Of a stretch of 31,542 nt of DNA, positions 148 through 31,542 are shown piece after piece (position 1 is the first letter of the stretch; each line of letters opens with the position of its first letter). The stretch spans positions 1 through 31,542 of IMG/VR virus record IMGVR_UViG_2711768060_000013; one strand, written 5' to 3'. Made by a program: the position numbers and the translations under genes. The notes beneath the pieces were generated by a model that had not been told where the DNA came from, did not search any database, and saw only the letters and a program-made list of their open reading frames with translations. Source of the stretch: a virus. Lineage: Duplodnaviria > Heunggongvirae > Uroviricota > Caudoviricetes.

Positions 148-2318
148 TAACGATACCTTATAAATATTCCCAGAATATAATCACTCGTTTTCAGCCACGG
201 ATAGGAGGTCAGACTCCAGTAATATCCGGGAAACGTATGTTCCTCTTTAATATGAAGAGTCTGTTCGCCACTTTCATCGACTGTAATTATATATGGCTTC
301 AGAAGTGAACCACTTAAAGCATCACCTCGCTTCAGGGTGTATCCTCCGGGCTTATCCTGATAACGAAATGCCGCCTGAACAATACCGCCAGCCTCCGGTG
401 ATGCATTCAGCCCGTTGGAATAAACTGTACCGGACAAAAAATCAATTAATTCCTTATCAGTTCGTCTCCAGAGTTCCCATGCCGGGACACCAGAAGTGCC
501 ACGGGCGTAATAAACCTCTCCATTAACACCGTAAAAAAAATAAATCTTTTTTACGCCGTTAGTTGTACCTGCTAAATTTGAAGCCCAGATAATTTCAAGA
601 ATTCCACTGAATAGTACTTTTGGTATCACTATGTCGGGGTTTGCATAAACCAGATAACGCCCCGGTTTTGCGTCTCTTATCCAGGAATCAAATTCGGCTC
701 TGGTGTCAAAGCTAATCCTGTCATTAATATGAAAAATTTCACCAAAACCCAGTGCCCCCGGTATCGCCAGTCGGCCTTCTGTCCGGTCGTAAATATCACT
801 CTGTGGCTCCATTGTGGCGGCGCTTTTCAGCTCCAGTACTGTTCGCATGGCTTCCGGCGTTTCCTGCGCCAGCAGTGAGCGTCCCTTTTCTGACAGGGGC
901 GCAAGGGAGACGTATTCATCTGTGTCAAAGTACGGAAGCGTGTCAGCACGTTGTGTCAGGTTGCTGAGTGCCGTTAACACATCACTGAGTGGTTGTTTAC
1001 CCGCCAGCGCGTTAGTGACGGTTGTCGCAAAGTTCGGGTCATTGCCCAGCGCCGCCGCCAGTTCGTTCAGCGTGTCAAGGGCTTCGGGAGATGAATCCAC
1101 CAGTGCAGCGAGCAGTTTGCGGACAAACGCCGCATTAGCTATTTCAGTGCCTGCTGCATCATCTGGCGGTGTTGGCGCTGTCGGCGTTCCGGTCAGTGCC
1201 GGGCTGTTTAGTGGCGCGCGGGTTTCAATCAGTGCCCTGAGTGAAGCCTCGTTGACCTTCAGGTTCTCCCAACCAACCAGATAACCACCACTGGCAGTCC
1301 AGTAACGGTTGTAATAAACATGGCCGTTAATGCCATAGAAAATAATGATTTTAGGTATATATACCGGACTGGGATTGTGCTGATATTCTGGCCAGATAAT
1401 GTCAACAGTACCACTGAACAGCACACCCTGTATTACCACATTTGTACGTGCATAAACGGTATAGCGTCCGGGGTTTGCCCTTTTTACCCACAGTAGAAAA
1501 TCAGCCTCTGTTTCAAACTCTGTCCTGTCGTCATAGGAAAATATTTTCCCGAATCCGAACATGCCGGGAACCGCCAGTCGGCCTTCTGTCCGGTCATAAA
1601 TATCACTCTGTGGCTCCATTGTAGCGGCGCTTTTCAGTCCCAGATTATCGCGGGATTCCTGTTGCGCCTCTTCGCCTTCTGCCGCAATTTCTGACAGGTG
1701 GTTAGCCGTTTTGAGTGTCGCTGATAATGCGGTATCAATCTCATCCCTGGCCTGCTCCGCATCAGATGCGGCCTTTCTGGCAGCTTCAGCATCCTGCCTG
1801 ACCTCTTCGGCGGTATCCTCAATCTGAGAGGCCAGAATTTCGACCTGTTTTTTGTCTTCGGCAACGGCCTCTGCGTTCTGCTGTACGTTATCCGCCAGCG
1901 TCTCGCAGTCGCTCTTAATTTGTTGCGCATCAGCGACATGTTGCCCGGCCTGTCGTTCGCTTTCCGCTGCCGCTTCCGCGCTCTGCTGCGCCTGTTGAGC
2001 CAGTTCCTCGAATTTCTTCAGAGCTTCCGGGCGCAGGTCAATATCGGTTGCGCCCAGAAAATCATTCAGCGAACCGTCCGTTGAATCTTCATAAACGCGG
2101 ATGACACCGATTTCTGAAAGGCGCTGTGTGCTTTGTGTCAGGCGAACGCTGTACACACCCGGCAGAACGGGGAAGTCATATTCCCCGTTCTGTGTGGTGA
2201 CATGGCTGAAAACACTTTTCAGAATTCCTGCACGGTTGTGCAGGGAGGTCAGTGTAATGGTTGCGCCGCCCAGCGGTTCTCCCGTGGGCGTTTTAATCAC
2301 ACCTTTAAGCTGCGGCAT
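147..2318 (-). CDS. side tail fibre protein, 723 aa, lambdoid Stf-type N-terminal domain plus P2 gpH/Stf-like collar, internally duplicated module
   Basis: ORF track; N-terminus (VYEDS..GSLNDFLGA..RPEALKKFE) resembles the Stf-family N-terminal domain; Ala/Glu-rich coiled coil; APLNSPALTGTPT..ALVDSSPEALDTLNELAAALGNDPNF block typical of P2 H / Stf fibres; ATG at 2316-2318 with GGAG 8 nt upstream. Confidence 0.85.
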   Translation of the reverse strand: MPQLKGVIKTPTGEPLGGATITLTSLHNRAGILKSVFSHVTTQNGEYDFPVLPGVYSVRLTQSTQRLSEIGVIRVYEDSTDGSLNDFLGATDIDLRPEALKKFEELAQQAQQSAEAAAESERQAGQHVADAQQIKSDCETLADNVQQNAEAVAEDKKQVEILASQIEDTAEEVRQDAEAARKAASDAEQARDEIDTALSATLKTANHLSEIAAEGEEAQQESRDNLGLKSAATMEPQSDIYDRTEGRLAVPGMFGFGKIFSYDDRTEFETEADFLLWVKRANPGRYTVYARTNVVIQGVLFSGTVDIIWPEYQHNPSPVYIPKIIIFYGINGHVYYNRYWTASGGYLVGWENLKVNEASLRALIETRAPLNSPALTGTPTAPTPPDDAAGTEIANAAFVRKLLAALVDSSPEALDTLNELAAALGNDPNFATTVTNALAGKQPLSDVLTALSNLTQRADTLPYFDTDEYVSLAPLSEKGRSLLAQETPEAMRTVLELKSAATMEPQSDIYDRTEGRLAIPGALGFGEIFHINDRISFDTRAEFDSWIRDAKPGRYLVYANPDIVIPKVLFSGILEIIWASNLAGTTNGVKKIYFFYGVNGEVYYARGTSGVPAWELWRRTDKELIDFLSGTVYSNGLNASPEAGGIVQAAFRYQDKPGGYTLKRGDALSGSLLKPYIITVDESGEQTLHIKEEHTFPGYYWSLTSYPWLKTSDYILGIFIRYR

Positions 2319-2835
2319 CGGGACGCTCCGGCCAGTTGATGGAGTAAAAGGAGGCTTCGTCAGTAACGGTGCTTAAATCCAGTGCCTTTACCGCTTTGAT
2401 ATATGCCATCCACTGCGTAAGACGGGCTTTATCATCGTCGCTGATGGTGCCCAGCTCCAGCTCGGTTTTCCAGTCGGAGGTGATGTCCTTTGCTTCATTC
2501 AGCAGGCGCTGGCGTTGTTTTTCTGATAATCGTGGGTAATCAACAGGAACCGGCAGCACTTCGCCGTCTTTGTAATACCAGCTGGCTTCAATGCCAAAAC
2601 CTTCCGGCAGTTCATCCACTTCCACAATGGTAAAACCAACGGGATAAAGACGGGACACGTCTTCTGCCATTGAATAAATCACGCCGGATTCCGGGTGAAC
2701 ACACAATTTGTATTTCTTCGTGAATTTATCCAGTGATTCATAAAAATCCTGTCCGTCTTCACTGCGGAAATACTGAATGTTTTCACCATAAGGCATCTCT
2801 TCCAGGTAATAACGCGAGACGTTTCTGAGTTCCAT
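2305..2835 (-). CDS. tail fibre assembly protein (Tfa/U-like chaperone)
   Basis: C-terminal motif (ARLTQWMAYIKAVKALDLS...INWPERP) typical of Tfa family; start moved to ATG at 2833-2835, which has a perfect AAGGAG 7 nt upstream (the track start at 2871 overlaps the previous gene); follows a fibre gene. Confidence 0.8.
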   Translation of the reverse strand: MELRNVSRYYLEEMPYGENIQYFRSEDGQDFYESLDKFTKKYKLCVHPESGVIYSMAEDVSRLYPVGFTIVEVDELPEGFGIEASWYYKDGEVLPVPVDYPRLSEKQRQRLLNEAKDITSDWKTELELGTISDDDKARLTQWMAYIKAVKALDLSTVTDEASFYSINWPERPDAAA

Positions 2836-2849
2836 TATTTTCTCCTTAA

Positions 2850-3845
2850 TTAGCCGGATACCGTGCGCCATCCGCCATTGATATAAATCTGAGTTTGTTT
2901 GTAATACACGCCGCCGATGTTATCCGCAGAGCTCCTGCCAGTATCCTGAACGTTAATACCTGACAAAATACAACCTGAAGGCGCGCGAAATACCCAGGAA
3001 ATTTCGTTACCTCCGGGATTGTGAAACACTTCGCTGGTATATCTGAAATCACGCACAGCGCCGGAATCGGTGCTGCTGATGGTGATATCGCGGGTACCAT
3101 CAAATGCCGTACCGTTAATTTTGCGTGGGGTCTGTAGTTTGGTGGCGGTTGCTGCGTTGAAGCTGTCTTTTGATGTATACACCTGTGCCCATTCGGACCA
3201 GCTGGCATCTGCAGAATCACGTCTTGAACGGATATAAACCGGGGCATGCGCTCCACTCGTACCACTCCAGCCAATCAGCAGTTCACCTTCGCCTGATGCT
3301 GTCGCGCCTTTCAGGTGCAGAACATTGCCATAAGTGATGGGGTAGCCGTTGTTGTACGCTTCATACATCTGCAGCCCTGCATTGCCCTGTGCTGTGCCGC
3401 TTAATGCCGTCATCCGTCCTTTTGATAAAAGGGTGTCCGGTGACAGGCCAATTGCTTTAATAAATTCGCTGGCTGTGGTTTTCCCGAGAATACCGCGCAC
3501 AAAAGCACTGAGCGGCGTTAATGCCATTGTGTCTTCGCCCGTAAAATACGGGAACGTATTATTCTGACCGGTTAATCCGGCAATAGCTCCGGCTGAACCA
3601 CTGTTCGTAATAAACAGTTTTTTCAGCGCCGTCATAATCTGGTCGGTGGTGTTTTTATCCGGTTTGATATTTGCCTGCCGGAGAATTTCCAGCAGTTCGG
3701 ACTGAATAATATTAAACCAGTCCGGCCCCGGATAGGTGGGCGGAATACCATTCCCGCCTTCGGTGAAATAAAGCGTTGTTTTGCTTAATTCAGCCGCGAC
3801 AGGTGGCATTACCGGCACACCCGTCGGATTATCCACATGAAACAT
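2850..3845 (-). CDS. tail fibre protein (Mu S-like position), 331 aa
   Basis: ORF track; position directly after the baseplate genes; C-terminal ATKLQTPRKINGTAFDGTRDITIS and SWSEWAQVYTSKD motifs shared with Stf-type fibres. Confidence 0.8.
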   Translation of the reverse strand: MFHVDNPTGVPVMPPVAAELSKTTLYFTEGGNGIPPTYPGPDWFNIIQSELLEILRQANIKPDKNTTDQIMTALKKLFITNSGSAGAIAGLTGQNNTFPYFTGEDTMALTPLSAFVRGILGKTTASEFIKAIGLSPDTLLSKGRMTALSGTAQGNAGLQMYEAYNNGYPITYGNVLHLKGATASGEGELLIGWSGTSGAHAPVYIRSRRDSADASWSEWAQVYTSKDSFNAATATKLQTPRKINGTAFDGTRDITISSTDSGAVRDFRYTSEVFHNPGGNEISWVFRAPSGCILSGINVQDTGRSSADNIGGVYYKQTQIYINGGWRTVSG

Positions 3846-5494: not shown

Positions 5495-5936
5495 TAATGG
5501 TGGCCTCCCATCGGCGGGTGATTTCAATTGTGAGCGTGGTTTTGTCCGGGCGGGTTAACACCACCTGAAAGGCAATACGGTCAGGGACGATGATTCTGGC
5601 CGTGACGGTGGCGTTACGGGCGTAACCGGCCCGCAGCAGCGGTTGCATGGACAACCGCGCGTAATCTTCCACACGCAGGCGGACATCTTCCGTCAGCTTT
5701 TCACGCTCAAGCAGCCACAGGCGGGAACCCCACGAAAAATCGCTGTACGTGTCGCCCGGCCAGCCGCGCGGGTCGCCAGAGCCGTCAGGAATGACATCAT
5801 CGTCATCAGCACGGGCATCGGTGAAAAGGCAGATAAGAACCTGAGTGACCAGCCCCTCATCCAGTGAGAGGCCGTTATGGGTGACGGTGATGTCACCCCG
5901 TGAGAGCATGTTATTCCAGCGGATTCCTGTCGTCAT
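5484..5936 (-). CDS. baseplate protein, Mu gp46-like (GP46 / T4 gp25-like family)
   Basis: ORF track, 150 aa, ATGA overlap with the upstream gene, synteny. Confidence 0.8.
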   Translation of the reverse strand: MTTGIRWNNMLSRGDITVTHNGLSLDEGLVTQVLICLFTDARADDDDVIPDGSGDPRGWPGDTYSDFSWGSRLWLLEREKLTEDVRLRVEDYARLSMQPLLRAGYARNATVTARIIVPDRIAFQVVLTRPDKTTLTIEITRRWEATINAV

Positions 5937-23966: not shown

Positions 23967-24177
23967 TGAATTTTTCCCTGTACTTCTGGCACTGCCAGAA
24001 AATGTCCCGTGTATCCACGGAGTTCCAGCCACGCATGTAGTAGCTGGCGTGTGTGCCGTCATGGCCGGTGTAGTCCACCGGTTTCGGGGGCGGACCTCCG
24101 GCCATGCGGTGTAAAACCTCCTGGCGCAGGCGGTCACGCCGCCCGGCTTTCAGTGAGGCGTCCCAGCCTTTGCCCAT
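23926..24177 (-). CDS. hypothetical protein (83 aa) immediately after the endolysin
   Basis: ORF track; ATG directly downstream of a G8 tract; in the -1 frame relative to the endolysin. Confidence 0.45.
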   Translation of the reverse strand: MGKGWDASLKAGRRDRLRQEVLHRMAGGPPPKPVDYTGHDGTHASYYMRGWNSVDTRDIFWQCQKYREKFNVEKGNEQNFKTV

Positions 24178-24767
24178 ATCCCCCCCCGCGTGGTGGACGG
24201 CGCGTTGTCGATAATTTCCAGACAGGCGTCGGTCAGTTTTTCCATGCGGTTAAACCAGCCGTTCAGGTATTTACCCTGGGCGGGTTTTGACTTGATGATG
24301 TCGGCATAAAAGCGGGAACGACGGACAATGCAGCGGGTCAGCAACCAGTCCGGGGTGGACAGGCTCACGGCCTTACGGGTACACGGGCCGATGATGCCGT
24401 CAGCATCCACATCAGCGGCTTCCTGCAAAATTCTGATGGCTTTTTTAACGCCATGCTGAACCGCCGCATCGAACACAAACATCGCCACGCCATCAGGCCA
24501 CTGGTCACATCCGGCAGGCAGCCAGTAATCACGCAGGTAAATCTGTGCGGCCTGTTCGCGGGTTAAATCTTTGATGCGGGTATCCGGTTTACCGTCACCG
24601 TTGACATCGGTTTTGCCGTCAATCACACCGTCGCGGCGGTCAGAAATGCCGTATTTGGTTTCGCCGCCACGGTCAGTGGGGTCATTGACATAGACGCCTT
24701 CGATATCAGGACGCAGAATGAAATTCAGCGCATGTTCAAAGGCCGGGGAGAATTTTTGATTTTCCAT
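24150..24767 (-). CDS. endolysin, GH108-type N-terminal domain plus PG_binding_3-like domain; no SAR/TM segment
   Basis: ORF track, 205 aa; EGVYVNDPTDRGGETKYGI motif typical of GH108; AGGTG 6 nt upstream of the ATG. Confidence 0.8.
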   Translation of the reverse strand: MENQKFSPAFEHALNFILRPDIEGVYVNDPTDRGGETKYGISDRRDGVIDGKTDVNGDGKPDTRIKDLTREQAAQIYLRDYWLPAGCDQWPDGVAMFVFDAAVQHGVKKAIRILQEAADVDADGIIGPCTRKAVSLSTPDWLLTRCIVRRSRFYADIIKSKPAQGKYLNGWFNRMEKLTDACLEIIDNAPSTTRGGIWAKAGTPH

Positions 24768-27084: not shown

Positions 27085-27178
27085 AAATATCACCATTTCA
27101 GATTTAGGCGCGAGCAATCCCCTGACGCATCGCGCCATAATTAAAAGAAAGTGAATTAATTAAATATTCGTAGTGGTA

Positions 27179-27703
27179 TTAAATACCGGCTTCCTGTTCA
27201 AACGGAATAATAGAAAAATCTTCAATGCCCGATTTAACTGTAATTCCGGCAACACCTGCGACCGCTTTCGGTTCCAGTAAAATCGCTTCCCTGTTGATTT
27301 CCTGTTTCGTGCGAATAAAACGTTGCAGGCCAAGACGCTCCAGCGTTTCCATCACCGCATCCACACCGCGAATACTTACCGATGGTGGGCGCTGACGCCA
27401 TGACACATCGCCGGTTACCAGGTTCGCCGTCTTCACCTTGCCGCCGTTCGTCAGTTCGTCGCGGTTCGCTTCACACCATCCCTGTACGCCTTTTGAAAGG
27501 GTTTCAATACTGGTTTTAAGGGGCGCAATCTGTGAGGCGTATTTCTCAGTAATTTCAGCGATAGCGTCATTCATTTCCGTTTCAAGTCGTGCCGCTTCGC
27601 GTTGCAGGTCACCAATCCGGCGAATATCACACACCACGGCATCGCGGGATTGAGGAACATAAGCTGCTGCGGCACTCTTGATTCGTTTTGCTGGTTTAGC
27701 CAT
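27179..27703 (-). CDS. gam: host-nuclease inhibitor protein Gam (Mu Gam family)
   Basis: ORF track, 174 aa, recognised Mu Gam sequence. Confidence 0.9.
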   Translation of the reverse strand: MAKPAKRIKSAAAAYVPQSRDAVVCDIRRIGDLQREAARLETEMNDAIAEITEKYASQIAPLKTSIETLSKGVQGWCEANRDELTNGGKVKTANLVTGDVSWRQRPPSVSIRGVDAVMETLERLGLQRFIRTKQEINREAILLEPKAVAGVAGITVKSGIEDFSIIPFEQEAGI

Positions 27704-27723
27704 ATAAATAAAGCTCCTGTTAA

Positions 27724-28014
27724 TTAATATTCGCTGTATACAATGCTGGATACAGCACGATTGCTTAATTCCATCTTTTGGGCAATAACATGAATAGCCA
27801 GCCCTTCTTTATAAAGTTCACGACACAAATATTTGTCGTGCTCACTGATTCGGTAAACACACAACGATATTCCGTGCCTTCTGGCATGTGCCCGGAGAGC
27901 GGTTGTGGCAACTTTCAGTTTTTTCGCCATTTCTTCGACGGTCATTTTTCCGACATTGGCTTCGATAAACTCCCGGTCTTCGCGTGACCATCTTTTGCGA
28001 GGGATTATCATCAT
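27724..28014 (-). CDS. small helix-turn-helix-like DNA-binding protein (96 aa)
   Basis: ORF track; basic segment TVEEMAKKLKVATTALRAHARRHGI resembles an HTH. Confidence 0.55.
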   Translation of the reverse strand: MMIIPRKRWSREDREFIEANVGKMTVEEMAKKLKVATTALRAHARRHGISLCVYRISEHDKYLCRELYKEGLAIHVIAQKMELSNRAVSSIVYSEY

Positions 28015-28025
28015 GCCTCCTGCAA

Positions 28026-28220
28026 TTAATGTTTAGCTGCATCCGGGTTATACCGGAATAACTCGCCTTCGGCTTCCAGCCCAAGTTCTCTGGCTGACTT
28101 CAACAACTCCTGGGTTGCTTTTTCAATAATTTCAGGAGCCATGCTCTTGATAATGCCTGCCATCACGTCATGCGGTCCTATTTGCGCCTCAGGTGACTGT
28201 TCTTCCAGTTGCACACTCAT
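28026..28220 (-). CDS. small acidic hypothetical protein (64 aa)
   Basis: ORF track; ATG at 28218-28220; AGGAGG upstream. Confidence 0.5.
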   Translation of the reverse strand: MSVQLEEQSPEAQIGPHDVMAGIIKSMAPEIIEKATQELLKSARELGLEAEGELFRYNPDAAKH

Positions 28221-28326
28221 CCCTACAAAGAAACCTCCTTTTTTTGAAACTCAACATCTTCCATGCGGTTAAATTCAAAGATTACTTTTGCCATTTTGTT
28301 ATTCCTCACAAATAAATAAGCCGTTA

Positions 28327-28554
28327 TTAACGCCAGATAATCTGGCAACCATTAAGGCGGGCCGTCCAGACTGAACGGGCAACCCCTGATTTATGCTCCA
28401 TAATCCTGACAGCGTTTCTGACCAGCTCCGGTGGTGGGCAGGTGATTTCAAGTACCGGGCGGGCTACGCCCAGCCAGGATTCGTTGACGTGGCTGCCGCG
28501 CTCCTGTAACCAGCTCTTTACTTCCGTTGCCATTTTGATATTCCGTGACATCAT
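28327..28554 (-). CDS. kil: Kil-like small protein (75 aa) in the Mu kil position directly after B
   Basis: ORF track frame; start moved to ATG at 28552-28554 ([12 protein letters not shown]...) with AAGGAGAG 7 nt upstream; position and size match Mu kil as I recall it. Confidence 0.6.
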
Positions 28555-28567
28555 GATTTCGCTCTCC

Positions 28568-29506
28568 TTACGTGCGCAGCAGGGTTGAAATATCAACGTC
28601 CAGGTCTAATTCACGGAAAGCCTGACGCAGATAATCTTCATTAACACGTTCACCTTTACCGTGGGCGGTCATGGCAGCAAGGCGCAGCGAGTGGTTCAGG
28701 ATGCGAAGCGCACCTGGCTTTTGTGCAATCTGCTGTAATAATTCCCGCTCGTTTTCGCCGGTAATTTGCCAGGCATCCGCAATGGCTTTTACATCATCAA
28801 TTTTGGTTTTATTGATTGCCGTCCGTTTGGCAATACGGGAAAACAGGCGGGCAAATTCAACCGTTCTGTTACCACCGGTCATGTTTGAATAAACACGGTG
28901 ATTCCCCATCAGAACAAGGCCAATACGGGCGGACTCCTGTAACAGGCGGAGTTCTTCCAGAACCTCAGCGCCAAGATGATCAGCTTCGTCGATAATGACC
29001 AGCCCCTGCGTACCTTCAAGACGGCGTCTCAAAGCGCGGGAGAGTGGCCCCTTACGGCGTGGTGCGTCATTCATTCCCAGTTCATAAGCCAGTTCAGTCA
29101 GGCATTCCAGAACACTGGCACAGGATGGGGTAATGGTGATCATCCAGACATTGTTATTGGTGCGACGAAATTCGCGGGCCGCTTCAGTTTTTCCCACACC
29201 TGGATTACCGCAGATAACAGAAATACTTTCAGTCAGGCTGGCAAAACGCATACTCGTCCAGATTTGGCGTGCTGTTCTGGTTTCCACAAAACGTGGTGGT
29301 TCTGGCAGCTCTGCGGCACGGTGATAGTTCTCCAGCCAGCGTTCCAGCGTCTGCGCAACACGTTCATTGTCGCCGTTGTACTTGTTATTCACGAATGCGC
29401 TTAACGTTCCTGCGGCCACGCCAGACTCGCGTGCAATTTGTGCATAAGTCGCTTTTTCACTTTCTACAAGCGTGCGCAGTCCTGCGCGAATATCGGAAAT
29501 ATTCAT
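28568..29506 (-). CDS. B: transposition ATPase / target DNA activator B (MuB)
   Basis: ORF track, 312 aa, recognised as near-identical to MuB ([15 protein letters not shown]..., Walker motifs [17 protein letters not shown]). Confidence 0.95.
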
Positions 29507-29544
29507 CTGAATAACCTCGTAATTAAATTTTGTTTAAACGTTAA

Positions 29545-31542
29545 TTAAATGGCTTTTTTACGTCTGTTCTGTTCCAGAATATCCAGCGAATGATTCAGAT
29601 ATTCATCACGATCAGTTTCATATTCATCATCGGGTTCCTGGTATTTCACCTGCACCGTGTTACCGGAAGGCCGGAAAATACCAACAACCCTTGATTCTGG
29701 CGCTGCTGGTTCGGCTATCTGCGGCAGCAGTTCAGCAACTTCCAGCGCGTCCATTTGCTTCTGCGCCTTAATGGCTGCTTTAGTTGCAGATTTCAGTTGT
29801 TTCTGGCGGCGGCGATATTCGCGGCCTGCCGCAGCATCATTAAATGCAACAGGTGCCAGACATTCCGCTTCACAGATAAACCGACCGTCCAGGGTGTAAC
29901 AATAAACCGTGCTGTGTAACTGCTGTGGATCAAACCTGACCACAACTTTTTTCACATTGGCATTCATTAACGCCATGTTGTAATAAACGTTTTTCGCGCC
30001 TTTAAGGGAGCCGCCAACTTTAAGCGTAAACTCGCCTTTGCGTGAAACGTTCACCGCCTCGGCAGGCAGTAACAGCATCCGTTTTTGTTCTTCGGTTGGC
30101 TTACGCACAATCGTTCTGGCGTATTCACGCTCGAAAACATCATCAAACGAGAGTTTGCCCCCGCACATTTCTGTTTCACGGCCTGTTCTGGCATTGAACA
30201 TCGCCACACCTTCGGCAAGGGTTTTCAGAAACAGCTCTGCATCAACAGCGCGGTCGCCATAGTTATCAGGTTTTGCCTGCGGATTTGGCCCCGTATATGC
30301 ACCAGCCAGTGCCGGATGCTTATCAACGTATTCCTCAAGCCCACCAACACCGAAAGCACGTTCAACAGGTTTTGCCTGGCCCCAGCCTTTACCGGCAACA
30401 ACGCTTGTCCAGTGCATTTTCGCGCCCATCAGTAAAAACAGCCCTTTTGGATCGTCCTCTTTTACCTTAAAGCGGTAGCGATTGGGCGCGCCTCCCGTCA
30501 GCCATTTATTCGCAGCACCACGGGTGTTATCAATGGTGATGTGAAAATCCTCCGGGATACCGTAGCGAGTCACAACATCCATGAACGAGAGGCGAATTGA
30601 ATCGATGTTCTCACTGACATCGCAGCGCCAGCCCAAAATTTTTCGGGTTTTCACATCCTGCCAGAACCATGTTTTCGGGCGGATCACATCACCGTTAAAC
30701 CAGCGTACAAAGACGTTATGCAGATAACCGTCGCCGTTGATCCACTGCATGGCGTCCAGGTGTTCCACAGTTCGCTGCTGTGCCGGTATCAGATGCATCA
30801 GAGCATGTTCACCTTCACGGCAGGCAACAACCATTGCCTCGTCCAGTTGCTGAATCCGGCGAAAGGCCGTGGCACGGGAGGGAATACTCCAGCCATGCTC
30901 GCGGGCTGCCAGTTCCAGACGCTCATAACATTTGCGAAAGGCGGGTTTTTCCGGTCGCAGATAATCTGCAATCAGAAACTGCCAGGCATCCTCGTCAAAT
31001 TCACTTTTGTGAATGTTGCGACGGGATGCACCACGTCCATCAACAAGCGCAGCCGCCCAGTCAGGCTTCGCAAACTTCTGTACCTGGTAATATTTGTCTC
31101 GCAAAGTGGATGCGCTGACCTGGTAATGTCCTGCAACGGTCGCAAATGCCGTTTTTGTTGAAATCCCCTGGTTCAGCATTTCGTCTGCGGCCTGAACCGC
31201 AGGCAACCATTTTTCAGCAAGTTTGCGCTGGGAATCGCTGGCTTTATCCCATTTGCTCCACAGTGCCTCGCGATCGTAATCGTGGGCTTCCAGCGTGGGG
31301 CGGGCGATTTCAAAATACCCCTGGCTTGTTTCTATTTGCTCAGATTTTAATAACAACTCAGCACGTGCTGCCGCTGGTAGAACTGATATATGAAATTCCA
31401 AAGCCTTTGAACCCGTACGCTTGCGACGTAGTTCTGGATGATTGGCTGCAAGCTTTTCAAGATTGCGGCGAATACTCACCTCATGTTTAGGAAAGCATGA
31501 CATTCCTACGCATTCTTGCGCTGTTACCCAATGGGTTAACAT
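29545..31542 (-). CDS. A: DDE transposase A (MuA), 665 codons; ATG at 31540-31542 is at the window edge so the true start may lie beyond the window
   Basis: ORF track; from about residue 77 onward the sequence is recognised as essentially MuA; the first ~75 residues differ from my recollection of Mu. Confidence 0.95.

Follow-up and report, generated by a model that had tools for sequence, protein, structure and literature searches.

Does a transposable phage whose transposase is that of Mu in all but its first residues also share the immunity of Mu? The question is raised by one edge of a 31,542-nucleotide stretch of DNA (the window), positions 1 to 31,542 of the IMG/VR virus record IMGVR_UViG_2711768060_000013 (Caudoviricetes), where gene A encodes a Mu-type transposase. 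The initial annotation of this stretch noticed that the N-terminus of the protein differs from Mu A and suggested a heteroimmune relative of Mu. That Mu and D108 differ by a modular exchange of the immunity region, which extends ~70 codons into A, is textbook knowledge. Here, the divergent N-terminus is probably one end of a foreign immunity cassette, and the repressor in that cassette has a DNA-binding domain of a different fold from that of Mu.

A sharp junction in the transposase gene

Gene A fills the last two kilobases of the window and falls into two parts:

29545-31542, minus strand: gene A, 665-amino-acid Mu-type DDE transposase (open reading frame; Pfam PF02316, PF09039, PF02914 and PF09299; DDE triad).
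31336-31542, minus strand: A codons 1-69, divergent I-alpha winged-helix domain, right-hand part of the foreign cassette (no megablast match in the Mu group).
29545-31335, minus strand: A codons 70-665, domains I-beta/gamma, II and III, Mu-like (96.9% nucleotide and 98% amino acid identity to Mu).
31327-31338, minus strand: mosaic junction, A codons 69-72, I-E-T-S (DNA alignment; starts of the megablast matches).

The exact A protein is matched by all four MuA-type families (HTH_Tnp_Mu_1, HTH_Tnp_Mu_2, DDE_2 and Mu-transpos_C; precomputed Pfam), and its catalytic residues D271, D338 and E394 align to D269, D336 and E392 of Mu. By these features it is a MuA-type transposase. The 76 residues that the initial annotation quoted are the exact translation of positions 31315-31542 on the reverse strand.

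The two parts of the protein have very different relationships to known phages. Residues 1-70 are 29% identical to Mu A, 35% to D108, 38% to SfMu and 31% to PhiR68_1. For residues 70-665 the corresponding values are 98%, 98%, 97% and 97%, with 11 substitutions relative to Mu A after residue 70. The remainder is essentially Mu-like, as first noted, and pairwise alignment finds the N-terminus identical to neither Mu A nor D108 A. The divergent segment is shorter than the ~75 residues first assigned to it. Because residues 70-76 (IETSQGY) are already common to D108, it comprises ~69 residues.

At the DNA level the change is abrupt. We compared the window gene with 50,697 phage records by megablast. 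The first 207 nucleotides have no match among these records. From nucleotide 207/208 onward the gene is 96.9% identical to Mu, 96.2% to SfMu, 95.6% to PhiR68_1, 95.5% to Mu_3F6 and 95.4% to D108. In the DNA alignment all five phages converge at the I-E-T-S codons and are almost identical thereafter. Prophages in about 100 E. coli genomes match the remainder of the window, and their matches to A likewise begin at nucleotides 207-211. Since the start positions are the same in the phages and in these prophages, the junction is a recurrent break point. A break point in the IETS region is already familiar from the Mu/D108 pair. The divergence itself is well beyond chance.

A probable foreign immunity cassette at the left end

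The window stops at the start of A, within the left-end regulatory module of the prophage, and the neighbouring genes have to be read from its source. The 665-residue protein has an exact match in one contig, GCA_001269325.1 CXYG01000018.1 (locus L007), which extends 6 kb beyond the window edge. The flank is the E. coli chromosome (rclR-ykgEFG-ykgH, 100% identity), and the left end of the prophage (TGTATTGATTCACTTGAAGTACGAAA...) interrupts ykgH at about L007 4665. Behind attL the genes follow the Mu/D108-type order, with a divergent c, then ner and A:

L007 5002-5610, minus strand: repressor gene c, 202 amino acids, divergent.
L007 5780-6007, plus strand: Ner-type gene, 75 amino acids, HTH_35.
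L007 6001-7998, plus strand: gene A in the source contig.

The intergenic region between c and ner is 169 bp long. Counted from the left end, positions 1-457 (95%) and 1544-3415 (97%) of the locus match Mu, and positions 458-1543 are unmatched. PhiR68_1 gives nearly the same picture, with matches at 1-471 and 1481-3426. The 1,086-bp stretch between the matches is unlike both phages. Its contents run from the first ~163 codons of the repressor gene, through the operators and promoters of the intergenic region and ner, to A codons 1-69. Outside this block attL and the A domains from I-beta/gamma onward are Mu-like.

The locus shares with Mu an attL that is 95% identical in DNA and an operator region that lies about as far from the left end. 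In contrast, the window I-alpha is 29% identical to that of Mu, Ner is 38-39% identical to the Ner proteins of Mu and D108 (38% for Mu), and the operator DNA is unrelated to theirs. The N-terminal 100 residues of the repressor cannot be aligned with the Mu/D108 repressor. Extending the window, the check proposed in the initial annotation, has thus recovered ner, the repressor and the operators, and the whole immunity region differs from those of Mu and D108. Because the repressor DNA-binding domain and the operators are unrelated and Ner is divergent, we strongly infer that the phage is heteroimmune to both, which bears out the original suggestion at the level of sequence.

An XRE-type repressor with a Mu-like tail

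The repressor gene beside A in the source genome was checked and is neither of the Mu-c nor of the D108-c type. Alignment divides its product into three parts. The first is an XRE-type DNA-binding domain. The second is a central helical segment (...LIAIVELLEDKELHSAIELFRKKGFEALMP...) common to XRE-type and Mu-type repressors. The third consists of the C-terminal ~40 residues (...RKEILSKYGIYEQEGLVAPSQEPQDVKKAV), which are absent from other XRE-type repressors and whose coding DNA shows 95-97% identity to Mu and PhiR68_1. The Mu-c-like regulatory tail (...SKYGI.EQE..V.PSQEPQ.VKKAV) is present.

The assignment of the first part rests on profiles and on structure prediction. Residues 35-78 match PF01381 (HTH_3, a helix-turn-helix family) with 30.8 bits, above the cut-off. 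PF02316 is matched only at profile positions 76-133, whereas the c proteins of Mu and D108 match the whole profile; the Mu-type winged helix (positions 1-75) is not matched in the repressor of the window phage. A sequence search of the PDB gave no match to the Mu repressor. An AlphaFold model of the repressor family (15 members) has a confident five-helix N-terminal domain (predicted local distance difference test, pLDDT, 84-90) that superposes on C.AhdI, SinR-N, 434 Cro and lambda cI at 1.3-2.4 Å. No Mu-repressor structure is among the 50 best PDB matches listed for this model.

The change of fold alters the relationship between repressor and transposase. It had been noted that the N-terminus of A co-varies with the repressor in Mu and D108, and this holds: the two are paralogues there, as they are in SfMu and PhiR68_1. 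In these four phages BLASTP aligns the A N-terminus with the phage's own repressor at 41-65% identity (E-values, the expected numbers of chance matches, of 6e-17 to 4e-26). The similarity in Mu and D108 gave Mizuuchi et al. 1986 its title, as cited in PMC3820752. The same comparison finds nothing meaningful in the window phage (best E 0.35 over 12 amino acids), and no similarity in the related prophage of E. coli SE11 or in six other relatives. The paralogy is absent from the window phage because the DNA-binding domain of its repressor has a different fold. Here I-alpha and the repressor are linked by co-inheritance only, and the XRE helix-turn-helix has no similarity to I-alpha. D108, SfMu and PhiR68_1 follow the same principle of exchange, with the immunity block and the first ~68 A codons swapped at the IETS junction. 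In each of them, however, the repressor is a winged-helix protein paralogous to the N-terminus of its A (55-65%), and the window repressor is XRE-type.

A further observation concerns the repressor C-terminus, which in Mu governs sensitivity to ClpXP. XRE-type and Mu-type repressors alike end in a short basic KKA[GV] tail (VKKAV, QKKAG, KSKKAG and similar). This tail may be a degradation or induction signal common across the types of DNA-binding domain.

The cassette moves between backbones

Of 5,426 complete E. coli genomes, only SE11 and N1286 contain the first 228 nucleotides of A without a single difference. In both, the left end of the prophage is almost identical to that of the window phage. 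Between the window phage and the SE11 prophage there are 7 differences in the first 1,596 nucleotides from the left end (99.6% identity) and 80 in the next 1,840 (95.7%), with the I-alpha junction as the point of change. This drop in identity at the junction indicates that the module has moved, and the left end has been exchanged recently between two different backbones. The remainder of A and B is 95.7% identical in SE11, the two prophages diverge more further downstream, where the genes differ, and the SE11 prophage is inserted in yfcI versus ykgH here. It has been recorded as PP_SE11-7, in a table entry labelled only 'Mu-like' (PMC2608844).

We consider it likely that modular recombination has placed a foreign immunity cassette in a Mu-like early backbone, with the heteroimmunity that this leads one to expect. 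In the mechanism we propose, homologous recombination at two conserved coding motifs would have swapped in the 1,086-bp cassette. One exchange would lie at ...ALMP... to LPxxxRKEIL within the repressor gene, the other at IETS within A. Every element that reads the operators would then be part of the cassette: the DNA-binding and central parts of the repressor, the operators and promoters between c and ner, ner itself, and I-alpha of A. Elements acting on the Mu ends would stay Mu-type, namely attL with its L1-L3 sites and A from I-beta/gamma through III. By analogy with Mu, I-alpha would be expected to bind an enhancer located among the co-inherited operators between c and ner, which lie at ~950-1,115 bp counted from the left end, as in Mu. 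Such a phage would transpose with Mu chemistry and answer to a different set of repressor, Ner and enhancer. Its repressor would read DNA with an XRE/Cro-type helix-turn-helix grafted on a Mu-c-like oligomerisation domain and C-terminal tail, and repressor and transposase would be linked by position and not by a common domain.

Relatives with the same arrangement

The combination is not confined to one prophage, and many loci of the survey described below also have it. Sequences from E. coli and Shigella, 342 in all, make up the repressor cluster, and more distant HTH_3 repressor homologues (46-73% identity) occur in Citrobacter and elsewhere. Six homologue contexts (among the Citrobacter-type loci L008-L015) all show the order XRE-type repressor, ner, A, B, kil. 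Identity to the window phage is 56-67% for the repressor N-terminus, 52-92% for Ner and 41-79% for I-alpha. These loci, the Klebsiella phage Kp4866-3 and the Yersinia phages vB_YpM_5 and vB_YpM_Tongde share with the window phage an XRE-type repressor with a Mu-c-like central domain, a Ner of the HTH_35 family, an I-alpha with RKR.GSKA.E[FY], and inverted repeats that bracket the -35 of the early promoter. They differ in that their A bodies are only 27-75% identical to that of the window, and their repressors are without the Mu-type C-terminal ~40 residues.

Two prophages of Apirhabdus apintestini (L027 and L031) have a related I-alpha subtype (54%) and the same type of Ner. Yet in them the repressor is of the winged-helix type and paralogous to I-alpha (51%, E 2e-21), and the operator repeats differ. 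This suggests that an XRE domain replaced the DNA-binding domain of the repressor within this lineage, and that Apirhabdus has the arrangement that preceded the swap.

Candidate operators between c and ner

In the source contig we find three inverted pairs of a AAAAATGC(G) half-site and a single promoter-like site:

L007 5569-5589: inverted pair 1, palindrome AAAAATGCGCTCTGCATTTTT within repressor codons 8-14, encoding KNAERIF.
L007 5636-5671: inverted pair 2, weaker.
L007 5672-5705: inverted pair 3, 11-nucleotide arms and 12-nucleotide spacer, bracketing the -35 of the early promoter.
L007 5689-5717: sole promoter-like site, putative early promoter, TTGAAA-17-TATCGT.
L007 5709-5731: separate palindrome CGCTATCG-N7-CGATAGCG, between the -10 and ner.

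The operator-like 9-mer AAAAATGCG occurs three times in the 14-kb locus, each time inside the same 137 bp, and once in the 31.5-kb window, which is chance level. Relatives keep the same operator architecture, each with its own variants of the half-site. Since the inverted repeats bracket the promoter, we provisionally assign them to the repressor. Repeats of the type GGTA[AG]CCG also lie between the -10 and ner; together with the palindrome at 5709-5731 they resemble Ner sites. The first pair appears to double as coding sequence and operator. Both the KNAERIF peptide and the palindrome are kept in relatives, where the arms show compensating changes (L013: AAAAATTCG...CGAATTTT).

Among the window phage, L008 and L010, whose I-alpha domains are 57-79% identical, DNA conservation between c and ner is limited to the repeats and the Ner-site region. 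It is conceivable, though we rather doubt it, that the I-alpha winged helix and the XRE repressor, two unrelated folds, read the same or overlapping repeats of the AAAAATGCG type. If so, the Mu rule that the repressor directly blocks the transpositional enhancer would be kept by convergent specificity and not by paralogy.

Two candidate rules for the sites were rejected. One was a covariation between the operator and residue 3 of the S-D-x-V-I-R-N-Y helix of the repressor. Across seven loci SDG goes with ATGCG, SDT with ATTCG and SEA with ATACG half-sites, but Kp4866-3 breaks the rule, with SDT and AAAAAACCGA arms. The other was a transfer of sites from the Apirhabdus prophage L027. No site motif can be transferred because the repeats there (ACATACTTTTC / TTAAAAAACATA) differ, and they do not occur in the operator region of the window phage. 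An IHF site between the two operator pairs was also sought: the exact WATCAANNNNTTR is absent there, and one site with a single mismatch shows no consistency across relatives.

Maintenance or decay of the divergent domain

In Mu, I-alpha is the domain that binds the enhancer (PMC3362531). In the window phage PF02316 matches residues 10-76 of A. A phmmer search of the PDB sequences with the domain returns a single match, 1TNS, the nuclear magnetic resonance structure of MuA I-alpha (E 1e-5, residues 4-76). An AlphaFold2 model of the domain (pLDDT 77, predicted template-modelling score 0.63) also finds 1TNS as its best match in the PDB (template-modelling score 0.61-0.64), followed by 1QPM, the DNA-binding domain of the Mu repressor. 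The model indicates that I-alpha keeps the winged helix-turn-helix fold of the Mu class.

Several points weigh against a cassette with a working I-alpha, and some of them favour a rival explanation, in which the N-terminus of A no longer interacts with an enhancer and has no function, and I-alpha is a remnant that drifts freely and decays. Under some conditions Mu can transpose without I-alpha, and in some assays MuA is active without it (PMC3362531). The Pfam score is low, 27.1 bits and barely over the cut-off of 23.3, against 116 bits for Mu A over the same stretch. There is also no repressor paralogue left to constrain the domain. Apart from decay, confidence in the I-alpha model is moderate, with a shallow alignment of five near-identical sequences; inspection of the sequence identified no I-alpha sites; and operator repeats differ, being of the ACATACTTTTC type, in Apirhabdus, where I-alpha is 54% identical and the repressor paralogous.

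Decay is nevertheless unlikely, with only a small share of the probability. Compared with the Citrobacter-type locus L008, in which the domain is 79% identical, the proportion of nonsynonymous differences (pN) in I-alpha is 0.118, far below the proportion of synonymous differences (pS) of 0.688. The rest of A is comparable (pN 0.160, pS 0.731). We give these proportions instead of the rate ratio dN/dS because most pairs are saturated in the synonymous rate dS. All related loci examined have an intact domain, including L011, where a GTG start was overlooked by the gene caller. The reading frame and the motif set W.T.QEC.G..P...IRR.LE...RKR.GSKA.E[FY]..LP are kept in all XRE-type loci. In the window phage the fold is kept as well. 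Because pN is far below pS and the domain is intact across relatives, I-alpha is under purifying selection, maintained and not decaying.

A second rival holds that only the N-terminus of A differs, a private variant without regulatory meaning in a phage that keeps Mu/D108 immunity. From the window alone, which ends at the A start codon, this would be open. The source contig and SE11 refute it with their unrelated repressor DNA-binding domain and operators and a Ner only 38-39% identical to those of Mu and D108, and we give it hardly any probability.

The least credible rival, to which we attach practically no weight, is an artefact: a wrongly called start codon, a protein that begins further upstream, or an assembly that is chimeric where the window ends. 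The A start codon is indeed the last codon of the window, its final three bases, which had left an upstream extension possible, but an in-frame stop 19 codons upstream in the source contig and in SE11 and a GGAG Shine-Dalgarno sequence 8 nucleotides before the ATG exclude one. The stop codon of ner overlaps the ATG of A (ATGTTAA), RefSeq gives A the same start in SE11, and the 228 nucleotides recur unchanged in two complete chromosomes, with the contig continuing beyond the edge.

XRE-type pairing among Mu-like prophages

How common is a repressor that is no paralogue of its transposase? A homologue search with the 76-residue N-terminus returns only six short fragments. It under-counts the domain because full-length A proteins cluster at 90% identity under Mu-type representatives. 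The search with the repressor tells more. A scan with an alignment of MuA, taking one genome per species, gives 61 loci, 34 of them with the N-terminus of A and a divergent upstream open reading frame. Repressor and transposase are paralogous in 8 of the 34 loci and not in the other 26. At least 20 of these 26 match a hidden Markov model built from XRE-type repressors. As paralogy occurs in 8 of 34 loci only, the Mu/D108 arrangement is a minority in this sample. The survey is small, and it suggests that the same holds among Mu-like prophages.

Other parts of the prophage and of the survey

Directly downstream of A lies the second transposition gene:

28568-29506, minus strand: gene B, MuB AAA+ transposition ATPase (open reading frame; Pfam AAA_22 and Phage-MuB_C in L007; DNA match to Mu B).

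The phage is organised like Mu, but the early region, about 27100-31335, is the only part of the window close to Mu at the DNA level; the late genes are not. By megablast, ~4.4 kb downstream of the junction (A, B and kil to gam) match Mu, D108 and SfMu at ~91%. In the late region (6600-27100) the head and tail genes match a common E. coli prophage group at 93-95% and Kp4866-3 at 74.5%. The phage is a mosaic well beyond its immunity region. The gene directly downstream of mor (24150-24767, L007 12776-13393) carries Glyco_hydro_108 and PG_binding_3 and is a candidate endolysin.

Some loci have peculiarities of their own. The genes ner and A abut or overlap in all loci other than L010 (Logan contig ERR1715229), where a 153-residue open reading frame without a Pfam match lies between them on the opposite strand (3142-3603). 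Shigella flexneri SFBU1023 (L024) and E. coli ECMA0423 (L026) contain a truncated A of 544 residues, 90% identical over residues 2-547. It carries yet another pair of I-alpha and repressor: it begins with MREWISAIECMGLSGLPGSLMGVHKRAQREGW, the paralogous repressor is 40% identical, and the locus would represent a further immunity type of the Mu group in a degraded prophage. A 1,496-bp scaffold of Streptomyces sp. E11-3 (scaffold167, L029) codes for residues 240-659 of an A protein 98% identical to that of the window; it is most likely enterobacterial or Mu-derived contamination of the Streptomyces assembly.

Implications

In other Mu-like phages variable sets of repressor and Ner define immunity groups (PMC4378225). 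Our literature search found no analysis of the immunity type of the window phage. The published accounts of SfMu and of Mu-like Yersinia phages that we consulted treat c and ner in the terms of Mu and D108, and the XRE pairing goes unremarked in them.

The kind of event described here is well known. Two points lie outside the standard account of Mu: the DNA-binding folds of repressor and transposase are unrelated here, and such pairs seem to be more common than paralogous ones. With this locus, a further immunity type is seen on a transposase almost identical to that of Mu. The locus is also a natural experiment on the portability of enhancer specificity: an A body 98% identical to Mu is joined to an I-alpha with 29% identity, and the operator/enhancer region differs. 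Competition between repressor and enhancer is usually presented as a regulatory feature of Mu. The finding raises the question whether this competition holds in the XRE-type majority.

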